Shown: one piece after another, positions 1,114 to 35,272 of the stretch
Layout of the letters: every line of letters starts with the position of its first letter
Position numbering within the stretch: position 1 is the first letter of the stretch
Source of the DNA: a virus
Reading direction: 5' to 3' (one strand)
Length of the DNA: 64,000 nucleotides
Virus record (IMG/VR): IMGVR_UViG_3300040786_000062
Position numbers and translations under genes: made by a program
Notes under the pieces: generated by a model
The model's database searches: none
The model's input: only the letters and a program-made list of their open reading frames with translations
What the model was told of the DNA's origin: nothing

Positions 1114-1518
1114 ATGATATATTTAGAAACACTTTCGGTATTTACATCAAAGAGTAAGAAAAGCGATTTGGAAAAGATATGTAAGGAAAATTTAGCATAT
1201 TTAATTGATGAAGGATATGAAATATCAGTAAACGAAATACAGACTGGTATTCATCCATTTAAAAGTGTTCATTACTCTATTGCAATAAATAATAAAGATT
1301 ATAATAAGGTACTTTTTAAATGGGATGATATTAAGTATGATTTTATGGCATTTTTCGAAATATTAACTAATAATTATAAAATTTATAAAAAATATATAAG
1401 ATTTTTTTATAAATCTGATGATAACTTCTTCTTCCCTGAGATGCATAAAGATTATAATAAGGAGCAGATATTGACTGATAATATCGATTCAAATAATGAA
1501 CTTTTAAAATTGAAATAA
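1114..1518 (+). CDS. Hypothetical protein, NLAYLIDxG paralog family
   Basis: Intact ORF. ICKENLAYLIDEGYEI matches FCDNNLAYLIDTGFDF in the gene at about 44420-44838. Confidence 0.6.
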   Translation: MIYLETLSVFTSKSKKSDLEKICKENLAYLIDEGYEISVNEIQTGIHPFKSVHYSIAINNKDYNKVLFKWDDIKYDFMAFFEILTNNYKIYKKYIRFFYKSDDNFFFPEMHKDYNKEQILTDNIDSNNELLKLK

Positions 1519-7092: not shown

Positions 7093-7569
7093 ATAATATT
7101 TTTAATTTTATATTCTCTTAGTAAGTCTGTTTTGAAAGTGCTAGATTTATTAAAGTATTAACTCTAACCTCTAATTTATTTTTTAGATACTCATCAAGTA
7201 TATTTGCCCACTTTTCGGTAAATGTATCATCCTCAATAACAACTTCGTCCATGGTAACATTAAAATCAATGCACTTGTTTCTACAATCGACTACTATATT
7301 AATATTATTATATGAACTTGTAAAATTAACATGACCTCCATTTGTGGTTGTATACGTATTATTACCGGTGACAACATCTTGTTCAACACTCTCTAAATAT
7401 ATGTTTATAGAAAGTGTCTATGCCCATATTTCATTTTTTTTGTTACTTCTATTCTTTCGTCTTCTATATTCTCAAATAGAAATGTTAAAATTCATCAAGC
7501 TCTTTCATTCAATACAATAATTTTTAATCTATAATAAATTAAAGATTTATTATATATAAATATATAGCG

Positions 7570-8084
7570 TATTGTTTAATATATTTAGTGTAATAATCTA
7601 AATCATCCCTCTTTCCATTTGAGATATATCAGAACATTCCGCCTGCATCATCTAAATGGTTTAAAACTTTTATTCTAATCTCTTTATCGTTACCAACTTT
7701 ATCAAATATTGATAAAATCATCTTCATGTCTCACCATGTCATATACATCGCTACTAATGGCACCTTTATCATATAATTCATCTAAATAATCAATAGCAAT
7801 TGACTCATTGAAAGAATTCTCTGATAGACTCTCTGTATTAAGTCCTTTTAAGAATCATATACTTCTTCAACATCATCTTTGGCGGTTGAAATATGATCAG
7901 AGGCCCAGTCATGAGAATCTAGTATTGAATCAAGTTCAGACTCATCCATTTTAACATCAGATCTACTAATCTTTTAATAGTCTTCAAATTGGAAAGAACA
8001 TATAATTTTGTTCTTTTTGTTCTTTAATACTTACTAGTTTTTTGCTTCGTTAAGTTATAATCTTGGAATTTTTAAGTTTTTCAT
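7570..8084 (-). CDS. Acidic hypothetical protein with capsid-targeting-like N-terminus (MKNLKKFQDYNLNE after indel repair)
   Basis: Manual translation; TAATATATA element upstream. Confidence 0.55.
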
Positions 8085-23583: not shown

Positions 23584-24255
23584 ATGTCTTTAGAAAGAAG
23601 AAAAACTACGGAGCAGTTTATAAAAGAGTCTAAAAATAGATAAATATGATTATAGTTTAACAGTTTACACAACTCGAAAAAATAAAATAAAAGTAATATA
23701 TGATGATATAGTATATGAGCAGTTACCCGCTAATCATATGGTATATGCACCAGAGAAACTATCTATTTTATTATACCGATTATTTATAAAAAAATCAATT
23801 AATATAAATGGAAATCGATATAATTATGAAAATCTAAGGTAATCCAGGTATAAGGAAAGTTATTAATATGTAATAAGAAAGGACATGGTGAATTTTACAA
23901 ACACACATAATCATATTATGGAAAAGGTTGTCCAAAGTGTAGAGAGTCAAAAGGTAGTAAAATAAAAAGTATTTTAGATGAAAATAATATAAAATACAAA
24001 CAAGAATATAAATTTAAAGATTGTAAAATAAACAAGAACTACCATTTGACTTTTATCGAATCTATCAATACTTGTATTGAATTTGATGGTATACAACATT
24101 ATAAATCTATAAAATTTTTGGTGGAGATAAAAGATTAGAAGAACAAAAAGTAATGATAATATTAAAAATATATTGTTATAAAATATATAATTTAATAAGA
24201 ATAAGTTATAAAGAAATAAGTAAAATAAAGGATATCATAGAAACAATTATAAATA
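23584..24255 (+). mobile_element. Free-standing homing-endonuclease-like gene (DUF723-type repeats plus PD-(D/E)xK nuclease), frameshifted
   Basis: TTEQFIKES...YDYSL...K.K..IC.K.HGEF....NH..GKGCPKC.ESKG...QEYKFKDCK...LPFDFY...CIEFDGIQHY...FFGG...D.IK. Confidence 0.75.
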
Positions 24256-24284
24256 AAAAAACCATCAATTGATGGATTTTTTTT
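24255..24284. terminator. Bidirectional terminator between the endonuclease gene and the tmRNA
   Basis: A-run-ccatc-aatt-gatgg-T-run. Confidence 0.7.
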
Positions 24285-24285
24285 C

Positions 24286-24646
24286 TGAGATGACGTTGTA
24301 CTGCCCAACGTCTCTTCCTAGTTAAAAATAACTACTCATTTACAGGTTTAGTAAATTTTTCTAATTTACAAAATAACTAGTTTTTTGAATCTCATCTAAC
24401 TAATAAAAAAGTTTCACTTTTTAACTGATGACGCAGCTTGTAGAATTTTTAGAGTCTTATTACTAAGCTACTAGATCCGCTACTTGGATCATGTTGTTTT
24501 TAAGGGTCGCTACTAAGTCTTCACGAGTTCCTACTTCATTTACGTTTCCGTTTAAAATTTATCAACTAATTTATTAATCGGTTACTGTAGACCACCTGAT
24601 ACCTGCATAATTATCATAATCCAAAAAATCGATGCTAATACACCCC
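24286..24646 (-). ncRNA. ssrA: tmRNA (one-piece, about 361 nt) with a 28-aa tag
   Basis: 5' end GGGGTGTATTAGCATCGA and 3' end GAC-GTTG-GGCAGTA-CAAC-GTCATCTCA. Helix-2 strands pair: TTTTTTGG/CTAGGAAG, GATAATTAT/GTAGTTATT, GCAGG/CCTGT. Resume context is TAAAC|GGA. Tag GNVNEVGTREDLVATLKNNMIQVADLVA (24466-24549) is followed by TAG TAA TAA. It has its own promoter and terminator. Confidence 0.85.
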
Positions 24647-24688
24647 TTGTTATGATTTATATATATTATAATCTAAATATGTAAAAGT

Positions 24689-25045
24689 TTAATTTATTAT
24701 TACATTTTTATATCTAAATGCTTTTAGTGATATTTTTATATTTATCAATAACACCATTGAAGAATTTAGTTTATTACTTGTCATCTCACCATGCCAATAT
24801 TCGTCTGGTATTCTAGGTACATCCTTTCCTCTTGCACTTACCTCAACACCATTTATCTTACCATTCATAAAACCAACAGACCATGTGGTCTTCGTCAACT
24901 TCTCTATATAACCATTTGCGAATATTATCCCCCCATCCTGTTGATCCATCAACATATATATTTACCAATATTAGAATCTTTACTAAGAAGATCACTTCTA
25001 AATGGTAAATCGTTATTATTTCGTTAAAATTTTTAAATGTTTCAT
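24689..25045 (-). CDS. Hypothetical protein with capsid-targeting-like N-terminus (MKHLKxFNEN)
   Basis: ATG at 25045 joins ORF 24689..24955 after one indel. Confidence 0.55.
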
Positions 25046-28649: not shown

Positions 28650-29036
28650 TTAAATTATAACTTCATTTGTATTTTTATAATCTACACTTACCTGACCATC
28701 ATTATGATCCTTTTGTTTTTACAAACTTTCTCTTGCAATAAATAACAGTTATGTTATTTAATGACTTTGCCTTACTATTCTTTTAGTGAGCTCGGCAACT
28801 TTTCTTATTATTTCTGGTGTTGGTAAATTATCTCTAACCACTATAACAGAGTGAGATCCAGGAAATCCCTTCACATGCATCCAAATATCATCACTATCAG
28901 CAATGTTAAATGTTAAATGGTCGTTTGATTTGGCATCTCTACCTATATAAACTATAAATCCATCTATATCTAATGTTCTAATATCAGGAAATTTATCTTT
29001 ACCTTCATTAAATGATTTAAAATTCTTTACTTTCAT
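28650..29036 (-). CDS. Stand-alone NFACT-R (DUF814) RNA-binding domain protein
   Basis: IYIGRDAKSNDHLT...DDIWMHVKGFPGSHSVI...A.L...SK...V.Y...V.K...G.V; N-terminus MKVKNFKSFNE. Confidence 0.85.
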
Positions 29037-29123: not shown

Positions 29124-30773
29124 TTAGTTTAAGTATTGATCATCAGTTACTTGATAGTCATAAATTGTTTTGTGGAAACCATCCCACTTCAGCAACAGCA
29201 TATCTTGATCTAAGTAACATTCTTGGTGCAAAAGTTGCTTCAGAAATAATACTGATAGATTGTGCCATCAAGTAAGGTACGAAGATGATACCTGGTTGGT
29301 CTGGATTATTCTTTCTACCCAAAACAACTCTGTTATCATTATACTTCATGTAAGGATCGATATAGATTGAAATATCTCCAATTGAACCTACTGGGTATAA
29401 TTGTCCTTGTCCATTCATTTTAGATCTTAGCGGGTTAATTGTGTAACCAGCGATATCTTGAAGTGCAGCACCAAGACCACCGTTTGTAATTAAATACTGT
29501 GCTGGTCCAACACGTCCTTCTGTTGCGATATAGTTAGATGCGTGAGCAATCTTAGTTATCAATTTACGTTGAACAGCGTGAGTTGTTTCTCCACCTAATG
29601 TTCCATTTGCATATGATGTATCTAAATCGAAGATAGTTTGAAGAGTCAAACCTGATCCAGATCTAACTGGTGCTCCTGTTGTTCTGTTCAATTCACCCAT
29701 TTCGAAGATTTTAGCAACGATTTGCTTAGAAATTGTTTGAGACAATTCGTTAACAAGGATTGATTCCATCTTTTGAACGATATCCATACCTGTGTTTGCT
29801 TTTAATGTCTTCAATTTCAGTTCTTCTTAGAGCTGAAGATACTTCAATAGTACCAACTGCAATAGTCTTAGTTGAGATTTTCGGTCCGATAACACCAGAA
29901 TAAGTTTTATCATCTTGTTCTCTACTCATTGGATAATCACCTGAACTTAAGTTAGATGTCCAGTTTGCTGAGAAACCTGGCAATTGTCTTCTAATGCTGA
30001 AATCAATTCAATTGTTGAATCTGATGCACCAACTGTTCCGATCCAAAGAATTTGAAGAACCATTGAATTCGTAGCAGCAAATGTGTTTTTAGTAACATCA
30101 AAAGAAACTGATATTGACCAGCAGTGTTTGCTTGTCTGTATGTTCTGAACATTGGTAAACCATCTACTCTTGAGAATCCTAAAATTCAAGAACTCCTTCT
30201 TTACTAACTGGTTCAGCATTCAATAACAATGAAGCTGATGCTCGATGCTTTTAACGAATATTCTACCACCTTGTAAACCACCTTGTGTTTGTGATACCTG
30301 ATGTAGCTGCAAAATGCAGTTAATGATGCATTGATAGCAGCACCTTTTGTTGCGTTGTTCAATTTGAAAACTTGTGGTCTTGCATCTTCAGTGTCAAGGT
30401 CATCATATTGAAAATCAATATAAAGTAAATCTACTTTTGGACCTGGTGTTGGCTTAACAGCAACTAAATCCAAACCAATTGTTTGAGCAGCAATTTTCAT
30501 AGCTACTGGTAAAGGTTTTGTCCGATATCACCTGAACCAACTCCGTTTGCATAGTTACCTAAAGTTTGTCCTGCTAATCCTGAAGGTTGTGCAGCAACAA
30601 CTGCTCCCATACCTGCAACGTTACTTGCGTTAACATATGCGTTCTCATTAATTGAGTGAAATTCTGCATACTCTGACATCCAAGTAAGTTTGTCTTCTCC
30701 TACAACTCCCATGTTTTCCAAAACAGGAGACCATTTTTCATGGCTTTTGATTATCTATTCTAATCTGTGACAT
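29124..30773 (-). CDS. Major capsid protein (T4 gp23-like), frameshifted
   Basis: KKWSPVLE N-terminus; AAQTIGLDLVAVKPTPGP; IEDIKANTGMD...ILVNELSQTISKQI; GRVGPAQYLITNG; GSIGDISIYIDPY; YLMAQ...FAPRMLLRSRYA. Confidence 0.92.
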
Positions 30774-30852
30774 AATTTTTTTTTTTTTTTTTTTTTTAAT
30801 TCTATATGTATATATATCCTTTATTTTGTCATTTTTTGACAGTGTGGATTTT

Positions 30853-32899
30853 TTATAGATTAAATGTTTTAAATCTCTCCATAATAGCAGTCATATCGCC
30901 ATCTGATAACTTATCTTCTTGTATCAAACTTTGAGAAACTAATTTTCTAGATGTAGATTCAGTTTTAATGTTTCTAGTAGACCAAAATGATCAACTTGAT
31001 TTTCAGTTACTAATACTTCTTCTGGATATAATCTAGCTTGAGATAAGATAGATTTTTTAGAAGACTCATTTAACTGACCCCAGATTGGCTTCATGTTTTC
31101 AGGCATCAATCTGATTACTCTCTCTTCAAGAGTTTCATTCTTAGTAGAAAGTGATTCTGCTATCAAAGTTAGAACGTCTTTTGCTGTAAAATAACTACTT
31201 TCGCTTATGTGTAGTTTGACATCATCTTGTTCTTCTCCTGATAGAGAGTAATAACTATCTACTTGTGATTTATTTAAGAATTTCAAGAAATTCAAATCAC
31301 TGCTTTCAGAAACTTTACGTTTTTAGCTTCTGCTATTAATTTATTTATAGAATCTGAAAGTTGTGAATCACTTTCTCCATAATATTCTTCTTCACCTTCT
31401 TCATTTTCAGGTAAGTATTCTTTTGCTCATCTTCATCTTCTTCTGTTGAACAGTCAGCACCTACATAACCTGGCTGCATTTTATAATCTTCTTTGTTTTC
31501 AGGAATTTCATTCTCTTCATCTTGTTCAAATCCTGCGTCCATTAATGATGGAAATCTTTCTTCTTCACCAAATCCTTCATTTAATTTGTTTCCGTTTAAT
31601 CTTTCAACTATCATTCCTTGGTAGTTAATAGATTTATCAAGGCTTTCTGCTAAATATTCAGAATATCCGATGTTATCATCTAAATGTTCTGCGATATATT
31701 CAGAGTATGCAATATTACCTTCAACGCTTTCTGCTAAATACTCAGAATAAGCAATTGAGTTATCGACATTTTCTGCTAAGTATTCAGAGTATGAAATGTT
31801 TTATCAAGACTTTCTGCGATATACTCAGAATATTCAATGTTTTATCAAGGCTTTCTGCGATATACTCAGTATAAGAAATGTGTTTATCAACACTTTCAGC
31901 CAAATACTCAGAATATTCGATATTCTTATCAACATTCTCAGCTAAGTACTCAGAGTATCCGATGTTTTATCAAGACTTTCTGCTAAGTACTCAGAGTAGT
32001 TAATTGCCTTTCTAAATTTTCCGCTAAATAGTCATTATGCTTTGCTAATTTGCCTGTTGTTTCTTTTAAAGATTTGTTTTCAGTTACAATTATTTGAATT
32101 TTTCTGCTAAATAATCTAAATACTTACCAACTTGAGTGTTGCTGCTATTTAATTCTTCGTAGTATGCTAATAATTCGTCTAATTTCTTGGACTCATATCT
32201 CCTTTAGAGATTGCTTTTAACTTCTTTTGAGTTGTTGCAATTTCGTTTACCAAATAATGTGAGTAATCACTTAATTGTTTTTTGTTACAAATTCATTTTT
32301 GTTCATGTTGAATAGTTCGTTAATTTTGACTCATCGGACATTTCATAAATCCTAAAGTTGTTTTGTTCTATCTTACCGTCTTCACAATAACCCAAAGACT
32401 CATTTAAAACTTTTATGCTCATTTTGCAGATGCAAACCCAGGATCAGCAACAATATCATATGTGAATAATTTCTTTAATGATACTGAACCATCAGATTCT
32501 GTAATACCTGCTGCTCTTGATGATACGAAAATAGGACAACCATCATCGATAAGTGCCTTAGATTCTTTACCCCAATAGGTACTTAGTAATTTTATCTCTC
32601 CTGCAACTAGGTTCTTTTCAGAAACAAATTCTGCTTTTGTGATAATGTGAGATGCACGTGATAACGAAGTATCAAATACATCCGGGTGATCAAACTCACC
32701 ATAAACAGCACCTAGGCTGGTCATTCTTTCATTTAATTCTTCTAAGGCCGGTAAGAATTTGGTGCATTATAAATTCGCTCATTACGATTTTAACACCAAA
32801 CTCTGTAAACGTACCATTAAGAATATAATCTTTGCTGTTACCAACAGATTCTCTTATAAGAGAATCTGTTGAATTTTCTACGATTAAAACTGGTTTCAT
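30853..32899 (-). CDS. Prohead protease (gp21-like) fused or translationally coupled to a scaffold/core protein (gp22-like)
   Basis: GTFTEFGVKNRNERIY...VYGEFDHP...SHII...GCPIFVSSRAAG...TYDIVADPGF, followed by a coiled-coil, a repeat region and an acidic segment; lies directly upstream of the capsid gene. Confidence 0.88.
31630..32045 (-). repeat. Ten tandem 42-nt units encoding Y(S/T)EY(L/I)AE(S/N)(L/V)DKNI-type 14-aa repeats
   Basis: On the + strand, ta(c/t)tcag(a/t)(a/g)ta recurs every 41-42 nt from about 31655 to 31990, with one degenerate unit (HNDYLAEN). Confidence 0.92.
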
Positions 32900-33430: not shown

Positions 33431-35272
33431 GATTAAATTAAAGAAGATAGTATACATGATGGTACTATCGAATTCACAAGTAGTGAAAATGCGTTCATAA
33501 AAATAGATGATAGTCGTGTATTCATATTTAAAAGAAACACACTAAATGCACTTAACCAAGATAAAGTTAAAGTTAAGATTATTATAAAAAATAATAAAGT
33601 TGAAGCAGAAGTAATTGAAGTTACTGAGAGATATAGAACTCAGTTTGTAGGTAAGGTACATATAAATAAGAAATTAACCTTTGTTATACTAGATAGTCAA
33701 AAGATACCAGTAGACTTTTATATAAAAGGAGACCACGATGCGCTAGATGGTCAAAAGTTCTAGTTGAACTTATAAGTTGGGAACCAGGAACCAAATCACC
33801 CAAAGGTAATATTGTAGAAGTAATTGGAAATCCTGGTGAGAATAACACTGAGATGAATTCATTATGTATGAATATGGATTACCAAATAGTTTTCCACTAA
33901 TGGTAGAAGCAGATGCTTCTTAATAAGCAGTGTAATAACTGATGAAGAAATTAGTAAAGGAGAGACTTTAGGAACATATCTACTTTTACAATTGATCCAA
34001 AAGATGCAAAAGACTTTGATGATGCGTTATCAGTAAGTATACTTGGAGACAATATTGAAGTAGGTATACATATTGCTGATGTGCATTATATAAAAGAAGG
34101 AACTGATCTAGAAGAAGAGGCTGCTAAAAGAGCAACATCAGTTTATTTAGTTGATAGATGTGTGCCTATGTTACCGGAGATACTAAGTAATGGAGTTTGT
34201 TCATTAAAACCAAATGAAGATAAACTTTGTTTTCTGTTGTTGTTACTTTAAACAAAGAAGGTGATATTTTATCTAAATGGTTTGGTAAGACCATTATACA
34301 TTCTGATAGAAGATTTTCTTATGAAGAAGCACAAGATATAATCGAAGGTAATTCCGGTGATTATGAAGCAGAAATTCTAATACTAGACACAACTGCTAAG
34401 AAAATGAGAAGTAAGAGAATTAAAGAAGGTTCTATTGAAATGGGTGGTATTGAAGTTAAATTTCAATTAGATCCTATTACAAAGAAACCAACTGGTGTTT
34501 ATTTCAAAGAACAAAAGATGCGAATAAGTTAATCGAAGAATATATGTTGCTTGCTAATAGGCTAGTCGCAAAACTATCAGAAGCAAAGTATCATAATATT
34601 TATAGAGTACATAATTCTCCTAACATTGATAAACTAACTGCATTATCTTTGATATGTAAGAACTTTGAATATAGCCTAGATGTAGAAGATACTAATAACC
34701 TTAAAGATTCTATAAATAAACTGGTTAGTGATATAAAGGGTAAACCAGAAGAAAATATGATAGAGACTCTTATAACTAGATGTATGTCAAAAGCAACTTA
34801 TACGATAAAAATGGGACATTATGGATTAGGATTCACACACTATTCTCACTTCACAAGTCCTATTAGGAGATATCCTGACTTAATAGTACATAGAATTCTA
34901 TTAGATTATTTAAATAAGAAACCTAACGGAAATCCAAAAAAGATAGAAGACTCTGCAAAATGGTGTTCTGAAAGAGAAGTACTGCAAGGGCAGAGCGTGA
35001 TTCTATTAAATTTAAACAGATAGAGTATTTAGAAGATAAACTTGGACAAGTATTTGACGGAATGGTATCTGGTGTTACTGATTGGGGTATGTATGTTGAA
35101 CTAATTGAAAGTAAATGTGAGGGTTAGATATGATAAACTATATAAAGTAGATACTGAAAATTATATTGTATATACTAAAACAGGGAATCAATAAGATTGG
35201 GTGATAATGTAAAAGTTCTTGTTAAGTCTGTTGATTTAGAACGAAGACAAATAGACTTTGAAATATTCTAAT
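33429..35272 (+). CDS. rnr: Ribonuclease R (RNB family), frameshifted
   Basis: Cold-shock/OB domains, [86 protein letters not shown]-terminal S1 domain. Confidence 0.95.

Follow-up and report, generated by a model that had tools for sequence, protein, structure and literature searches.

Rescue of stalled ribosomes by tmRNA (SsrA) and its partner SmpB is the main bacterial ribosome-rescue system, and parts of it are already known to be carried by huge phages. The standard one-piece bacterial tmRNA, represented by Rfam model RF00023, has a length of about 360-380 nt and a fixed order of modules: a 7-bp acceptor stem with G3:U70 and A73, a reduced D region, a long helix 2 that replaces the anticodon arm and closes the pseudoknot/mRNA domain, PK1, a UA-containing resume context before a G-initial codon, a start-less tag frame with hairpins, three downstream pseudoknot-like elements, GAC before the T arm, and a T arm with the loop UUCRANY. 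Alphaproteobacterial and jakobid-mitochondrial tmRNAs are instead encoded by circularly permuted genes giving two-piece RNAs, of which the mitochondrial forms lack a tag, and G replaces U at the first T-loop positions, as GG in place of UU in the R. americana (Reclinomonas) mt-tmRNA and as a G for U342 in Caulobacter (PMC1168896). Tags of 8-35 residues and Gly resume codons fall within the known range (PMC3968760), while mollicute tmRNAs reportedly carry long, Lon-directed tags of about 27 aa, in which the length goes with a change of protease specificity (Gur and Sauer 2008). Among huge phages, Al-Shayeb et al. 2020 (PMC7162821) stated that tmRNAs and SmpB are carried, with tmRNAs assigned by ARAGORN only.

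The locus described here lies in a 64,000-nt stretch of viral DNA (IMG/VR record IMGVR_UViG_3300040786_000062), referred to below as the window, and is a tmRNA gene read on the minus strand (Table 1). The initial annotation had proposed a phage tmRNA at this position with a long 28-aa tag and a non-canonical T loop, and this observation was confirmed, the translated frame giving exactly the peptide it had listed. ARAGORN finds no tRNA or tmRNA anywhere in the window, and Rfam finds nothing in the whole window at gathering thresholds, while a search of a 1.4-kb excerpt at E up to 10 gave only a chance U4 match. These detection criteria are operational rather than biological.

Table 1. Features of the tmRNA gene and its flanks, all on the minus strand of the window; column numbers refer to the alignment of 31 copies.
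Feature	Coordinates	Sequence and local support
Candidate promoter motif	24662-24689	AACTTTT-N10-TTATAATATA; not a sigma-70 consensus; one match in the window against 0.01 expected; the same block lies upstream of the homologs
tmRNA gene, 5' G1 to discriminator A	24286-24646	361 nt as assembled; nearest relatives 363-364 nt
Acceptor stem, 5' strand	24641-24646	GGGGTG, 6 nt; homologs have 7 (GGGG-N-UG); column 1 is a private deletion in the window
Helix 2, 5' strand	24601-24628	Pairs with 24315-24347; 24 pairs 95-100% paired, 6 of them with double changes
Pseudoknot 1	24561-24600	S1 AUCGG/CCGAU, columns 50-54:70-74, nearly invariant, with a private G-to-A change in the window (AUCAGG...CCGAU); S2 3-5 bp, columns 58-60:88-90, 2 of 3 pairs covary
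Resume context	24550-24555	UUAAAC
Resume codon	24547-24549	GGA
Tag reading frame	24466-24549	28 codons
Hairpin inside the tag frame	24502-24533	Columns 121-131:144-152; 5 of 8 pairs with double changes
Second hairpin, just before the stop codon (helix-5-like)	24474-24490	Columns 164-169:175-180; 84% paired against at most 51% when slid; covariation score 0.318 against at most 0.14; also picked up as an inverted repeat by the terminator scan
Stop codons	24457-24465	TAG TAA TAA
Pseudoknot region downstream of the tag	24347-24437	PK2 S1 and S2, PK3 S2 and PK4 S1 85-98% paired with compensatory changes
PK2	24414-24437	
PK3	24376-24413	S1 seen by eye only
PK4	24347-24369	S2 seen by eye only
Helix 2, 3' strand	24315-24347	Includes the conserved ACUAA-CCUGUA block, aligned to ACUAAGCAUGUA of RF00023
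T arm	24293-24311	ACGTTG-GGCAGTA-CAACGT; 6-bp stem; 5 of 6 pairs covary, 97.8% of cells pair
T loop	24299-24305	GGCAGUA
Acceptor stem, 3' strand, plus discriminator A	24286-24292	CATCTC, one C short of CATCTCC, plus A; column 401 is a private deletion in the window; next bases GAAAA, no CCA
Intrinsic terminator	24255-24275	5-bp stem, 4-nt loop and T7 run; 3 terminator-like sites found against 0.0 expected

The window has a G+C content of 25-38% and encodes a T4-type Gp23 capsid protein, an RNB exoribonuclease, a D12 methyltransferase and an M42 peptidase, each as a fragment. The only related records in the phage collection are the 462-735-kb "uncultured phage" genomes LR745206, LR756502, LR756504, LR756501/3 and LR756500, all but LR756500 exceeding 630 kb, which are the huge Mahaphage-clade genomes of Al-Shayeb et al. 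2020 and are predicted in that paper to infect Bacteroidetes (PMC7162821). Under table 11 the longest ORF of the window is 269 aa, and ORFs of at least 100 aa cover 45% of it, whereas loci from relatives show coverage near 1.0 and ORFs above 700 aa. Recoding (TGA=W, TAG sense) was considered as a reason for the short ORFs, but no single reassignment restores long ones, tblastn shows frame switches rather than in-frame stops, and the relatives use all three stops at full coding density. When proteins of relatives are aligned to the window, each gene is split over 3-5 reading frames; RNase R, for example, runs through frames 2,1,3,2,1 over 33437-35268. The window also has fewer 5- and 6-base homopolymers and more 4-base ones than relatives, and it was concluded to be an indel-rich assembly, probably with homopolymer compression, and not a recoded genome.

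Homologs were first found by blastn in LR756502 and LR745206 at 72-74% identity, and exact-pattern scans seeded on the invariant UAUGCAGGUAUC block found the element on 16 IMG/VR contigs and about 25 metagenome contigs of up to 476 kb. In total, 30 further distinct full-length copies were collected from LR745206, LR756502, IMG/VR and metagenome contigs of up to 642 kb, giving 31 sequences with the window. A pattern scan of one genome for each of 185,579 prokaryotic species returned 12 matches, all by chance and none a homolog, and the family is therefore seen only on viral or metagenomic contigs. ARAGORN, applied with flanks, detects none of the 31 copies, and an in-silico swap of the T loop to TTCGAAT did not rescue detection, so the loop is not the only obstacle. 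With Rfam, the copies L001 and L002 gave only chance snoRNA/lncRNA matches. Given only a 406-nt stretch of the closest clean copy (L006), however, Infernal aligns RF00023 weakly but end to end (model 1-374) on the correct strand, matching the acceptor, the GCAUGCC, the UAA...resume and the ACUAAGCAUGUA blocks at 16.2 bits, E 1.1e-4, against a gathering score of 47.

In the tRNA-like domain, all 30 non-window copies start GGGG(A/G/C)UG and end CA(U/C/G)CUCC-A, giving G1:C72, G2:C71, G3:U70, G4:C69, a covarying 5:68 pair (AU 16, GC 6, GU 5, CG 4), U6:A67 and G7:C66. G3:U70 is 31/31 in the alignment and the discriminator is always A, followed by CAA, CUA or similar tails and never by CCA. As assembled, by contrast, the window copy lacks one base in each acceptor strand, has G.U at 2:71 and 4:69, has no G3:U70 and no 1:72 pair, and taken literally might not be chargeable. 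The one-base insertion on each side proposed in the initial annotation matches what all 30 homologs carry. At one position of the T stem the pairs are UA 11, GC 8, AU 7, GU 4 and CG 1. The loop is NGCRRNR in all copies, with the variants GGCAGUA, GGCAGUG, GGCGGUA, AGCAGUA, CGCAAUA and GGCAGAA, mostly the first two, and the canonical TΨCRANY is absent; since exceptions with G at these positions are documented in accepted tmRNAs (PMC1168896), that sequence is typical rather than defining. The loop nevertheless lacks U54 and U55, the sites of the m5U and pseudouridine modifications and part of the D/T-loop interaction that SmpB binding needs (PMC3968760). GAC, which precedes the T stem in bacterial tmRNAs (PMC1168896), is invariant in the homologs and GAG in the window, where it follows the block ACUAAACCUGUA. 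Compared with E. coli there is one extra base pair between GAC and the loop, and RF00023 aligns 13 nt where the model has 11, so that the acceptor/T stack is 7+6, or 13 bp rather than 12. A possible sixth pair has been recorded in Dehalococcoides (PMC1168896), but the combination seen here, in an unpermuted gene, is unusual.

For the whole RNA, a structure of 69 pairs in 13 helices was proposed, comprising the acceptor, helix 2 in four sections, PK1 S1 and S2, the first hairpin in the tag, PK2 S1 and S2, PK3 S2, PK4 S1 and the T arm. Across the 31 copies, 96.6% of cells form a standard pair, against 32-49% when the 3' partners are slid by 1-3 columns; 29 pairs show changes on both sides, against 8-11; and the covariation score is 0.349, against at most 0.12. 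For each of these measures, 0 of 500 shuffles reach the observed value. PK3 S1 and PK4 S2 can be drawn in individual sequences but were not counted, because the alignment register is ambiguous there. That the structure exceeds chance rests on this family-wide covariation, since the single-sequence fold is not better than shuffles (z = -1.06). An all-against-all column pairing scan was too noisy in AT-rich sequence with G.U pairs allowed, and an RNAalifold pairing of columns 86-92 with 271-276 was dropped in favour of PK1 S2.

The tag frame is open in 31/31 copies at 27-29 codons, alignment gaps inside it are 3 or 6 nt, and entropy at codon positions 1, 2 and 3 is 0.374, 0.317 and 0.563. In 19 of 31 copies, no in-frame ATG, GTG or TTG occurs in the open stretch upstream. 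The frame starts with GGA, GGC or GAC after (G/U)UAAA(C/U), and the consensus is (A)GNVNEVGT(R/S)EDLVAALQNNM.... Its N-terminal two thirds, including the block NEVGT(R/S)EDLVA, are better conserved than the C-terminus, which varies (LVA, AVA, ATV, AMV, VVA, VIA, ELV, ETA or VLA) rather than being ALAA, and part of that conservation coincides with the two RNA hairpins. Compared against the known range of tags (PMC3968760), the frame fits an internal start-less tag frame with a conserved -5 to -1 context, an Ala or Gly-type resume codon and a non-polar C-terminus. The triple stop is peculiar to the window, as 27 relatives stop at a single TAA and two (copies L054 and L058) at TAG.

In relatives the gene sits in an intergenic gap, for example between 7719 and 8206 in copy L004, within the same neighbourhood as in the window: Dam methylase, NADAR, tmRNA, M28-like peptidase, NFACT-R-like protein, major capsid protein and RNase R. 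A conserved upstream block, AAACTTTTTTGA...TATTATATATA(C/T)nTTTG, precedes most copies, and 17 of 31 carry TAnnTTTG, the Bacteroidota -7 promoter box, 25-35 nt upstream of G1. The window does not, its clade keeping the candidate motif of Table 1 instead, and a sigma-70 scan upstream of the window copy is at chance level. Every copy is followed by a hairpin plus T run, of unrelated sequence.

Potential partners were sought in the related genomes. A full-length SmpB (PF01668, E about 1e-50) is encoded in LR745206, LR756502, LR756504, LR756501 and a 385-kb IMG/VR contig; none was found within the 64-kb window, although in relatives SmpB lies more than 100 kb from the tmRNA. RF00023 gives nothing over its cut-off anywhere in LR745206 or LR756502, only tRNA-sized sub-threshold matches, so this element is the only tmRNA candidate to go with their SmpB. 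A full RNase R lies about 9 kb from the gene, in synteny. The related genomes also encode 1-3 ClpP-family paralogs and, in 3 of 4 records, a PolyA_pol/CCA-adding-type enzyme, while protein searches found no ClpX zinc finger, no Lon_C, and only a partial AlaRS-like ORF, in LR745206.

In the supplementary GenBank file of Al-Shayeb et al. for the genome corresponding to LR745206, SmpB and RNase R are annotated, but the tmRNA position, 204891-205271, falls in an unannotated gap between CDSs ending at 204803 and starting at 205413; the parts of that file examined show only CDS features, so this alone does not prove that the authors missed it. The 2025 tmRNA database paper drew viruses from RefSeq (PMC11915505), and no paper in the literature searched contains the core peptide of the tag. 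Other tmRNA types occur in related megaphages. The LR756504 gene (280507-280863) passes Rfam at 65 bits, has a 5-bp T stem, encodes CCA and carries a 24-codon tag that starts DNVN and ends AVAA, while LR756501 has a sub-threshold candidate at 21 bits with a 33-codon tag; ARAGORN misses both. Long tags therefore seem general in this phage clade, the GGCAGUA form being one branch of it. Compared with the permuted tmRNAs, this gene is unpermuted and one piece, and has a long tag and its pseudoknots, of which one stem each of PK3 and PK4 was seen by eye only. Compared with mollicute tags, the length is similar but there is no sequence similarity.

The initial annotation's interpretation was supported, as every structural claim that could be tested held up: helix 2, PK1 and the T arm covary, the tag frame and resume context are conserved, the GGCAGUA-type loop is a family trait, CCA is never encoded, the gene is one piece, the guess of one missing base per acceptor strand is borne out, and the association of the loop with alphaproteobacterial two-piece tmRNAs has literature support. 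Three qualifications apply: the 28-aa tag is long for Bacteroidota but within the known range, the LVA ending, listed there as a known ClpXP-active ending, is not conserved, and the routing of tagged products to different adaptors or proteases remains a hypothesis. Of the features listed in its favour, the terminator was found, whereas the promoter and the triple stop were only partly confirmed.

With high confidence, the locus is interpreted as the ssrA gene of a Mahaphage-type huge phage that probably infects Bacteroidota. In this view, the gene would be its own transcription unit, RNase P and 3' trimming would release an RNA of roughly 363 nt, CCA would be added after transcription, a CCA-adding-type nucleotidyltransferase being encoded by the related phages, and AlaRS would charge the RNA through G3:U70 and A73. 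The RNA would then bind SmpB and enter stalled ribosomes, where translation would resume at GGA and append (A)GNVNEVGTREDLVATLKNNMIQVADLVA. The architecture, the covariation, the coding signature of the tag and the co-occurrence with SmpB and RNase R in related genomes are demonstrated by the analysis, whereas expression, processing, charging, SmpB binding, the tagging of proteins and their subsequent fate are inferred.

The first alternative is that the window copy is truly degenerate, being a pseudogene or a non-tagging decoy that is not alanylated. It differs from the other 30 copies at six otherwise invariant columns, several in functional elements, against 0-3 private changes in other copies: the G missing from the 5' strand, the C missing from the 3' strand, G to A in PK1 S1 (an A.C mismatch), C to U in PK2 S2, which still pairs, C to G in GAC, and one base near the stop codon. 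Furthermore, a phage tmRNA that lacks a tag frame and inhibits the host system is known for mycobacteriophage DS6A (PMC11915505). However, every conserved protein gene examined in the window is also broken by frameshifts, roughly every 300-500 nt, which a viable phage could not tolerate; at that rate about one indel would be expected in 363 nt, so two are not surprising, and both lie in or beside G or C runs. The homopolymer depletion fits deletion-type errors, and the tag frame, terminator and upstream motif are intact. Assembly error is thus very likely, though unproven, and a truly damaged copy unlikely.

It is still less likely that the element is a structured non-coding RNA or small-peptide mRNA, such as a tRNA-like element fused to a 28-codon ORF, that only resembles tmRNA and does not perform trans-translation. 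Both dedicated detectors fail, the T loop and 6-bp T stem are non-canonical, and, unlike in bacterial tags, the C-terminus is not the conserved part. Against this, the full set of tmRNA modules is present in canonical order and covaries, with one stem each of PK3 and PK4 seen by eye only, the alanine identity set is invariant in the homologs, most copies have no start codon, RF00023 aligns globally, and SmpB, which is not known to have any role other than partnering tmRNA, is encoded by genomes in which no other tmRNA was found. Although tmRNA genes are common integration sites for genomic islands (PMC11915505), a host tmRNA fragment carried as attP or captured from the host can be all but dismissed, because the gene is full length with its own upstream motif and terminator, sits among capsid-module genes of large, apparently lytic phages, has no homolog among the species genomes scanned, and carries a tag unlike the GETNYALAA-type tags of Bacteroidota.

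A more speculative possibility, considered unlikely but not excluded, is a semi-orthogonal trans-translation system in which the altered tmRNA elbow, with its GG-type T loop and 13-bp acceptor/T stack, is matched to the phage's own SmpB and the long tag, with its conserved NEVGT(R/S)EDLVA core and variable end, is not a host ClpXP degron but sends rescued products to a different fate, such as the phage ClpP paralogs, another adaptor, or no degradation at all. Together with phage RNase R, this would let the phage clear stalled ribosomes on its own terms during infection.

The two closest published >630-kb phage genomes, LR745206 and LR756502, which have an annotated SmpB but no tmRNA that the tools find, do carry a tmRNA that neither ARAGORN nor the Rfam threshold detects, so surveys of phage translation genes undercount tmRNAs; a covariance model built from the 31 copies would allow systematic annotation. 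The long tag, conserved mainly outside its C-terminus, raises the testable question of which protease or adaptor reads it during infection. Finally, a one-piece tmRNA can carry the GG-type T loop so far reported only in the permuted alphaproteobacterial/mitochondrial lineage, here on a 6-bp T stem, which bears on how SmpB, EF-Tu and the T-loop modification enzymes recognise the tRNA-like domain.

All conserved protein genes examined in the window are split over several reading frames relative to the intact orthologs in related phages, and homopolymers of 5-6 nucleotides are depleted, so that the window looks like an unpolished long-read assembly, for which ORF-based annotation will be unreliable. 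Among the genes affected in this way is an RNase R-type exoribonuclease, which lies about 9 kb from the tmRNA and whose intact ortholog has the OB_RNB-CSD2-RNB-S1 architecture and is annotated as Ribonuclease R in the published LR745206 file. The positions of these and the other features are listed in the table below.

Positions of protein genes, tmRNAs and promoter-like motifs in the window and in related phage sequences
Sequence	Position	Strand	Feature
Window	1-64000		Conserved protein genes split over several reading frames
Window	33437-35268		Example of a split gene
Window	29161-30776		Example of a split gene
Window	30865-32899		Example of a split gene
Window	33437-35268	+	RNase R-type exoribonuclease
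Window	28650-29036	-	NFACT-R-like protein
LR745206	202508-202897		NFACT-R-like protein
LR756504 (L088)	280507-280863	-	tmRNA passing Rfam
LR756501 (L090)	718388-718731	-	Sub-threshold RF00023 match
LR756502	58622-59143		ClpP-family paralog
LR756502	112104-112634		ClpP-family paralog
LR756502	364599-365000		ClpP-family paralog
LR745206	75197-75721		ClpP-family paralog
LR745206	123568-124089		ClpP-family paralog
L002 (carrying a tmRNA homolog)	1436-1443		-7 box TAnnTTTG upstream of the tmRNA (example)
L001 (carrying a tmRNA homolog)	1470-1477		-7 box TAnnTTTG upstream of the tmRNA (example)
L004 (carrying a tmRNA homolog)	7201-7719	-	NADAR-domain gene
LR745206	205763-206236		NADAR-domain gene

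The tmRNA of the related megaphage LR756504 passes Rfam with 65.2 bits and has a 5-bp T stem, the loop UGUCGUAA, an encoded CCA and a 24-codon tag, DNVNSFEQ...AVAA, although ARAGORN still misses it. The 735-kb phage LR756501 has only a sub-threshold full-length RF00023 match of 21.1 bits, with a possible 33-codon tag and unclear 5' and 3' ends. SmpB is present in that genome. This match may represent another divergent or interrupted tmRNA.

The surroundings of the tmRNA also show conserved elements. A Bacteroidota-type -7 box, with a TTTG about 19 nt further upstream, precedes 17 of 31 tmRNA copies, which fits the predicted Bacteroidota host, while the clade of the window has a different conserved block. 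Additionally, a gene encoding a NADAR-domain (YbiA-like) protein is a conserved neighbor of the tmRNA.

Other genes carried by these phages may be linked to ribosome rescue and to the fate of its products. RNase R degrades non-stop mRNAs during trans-translation in bacteria. Directly after the capsid gene, between the RNase R and the tmRNA, sits a small protein annotated as "Fibronectin-binding protein A", an NFACT-R-like domain of the RqcH/FbpA family, which could provide a second link to ribosome rescue. The megaphages LR756502 and LR745206 carry two or three ClpP-family paralogs, but neither a ClpX zinc finger nor Lon was found in them; one of these copies may be the prohead protease, while the others could be partners for the tag.
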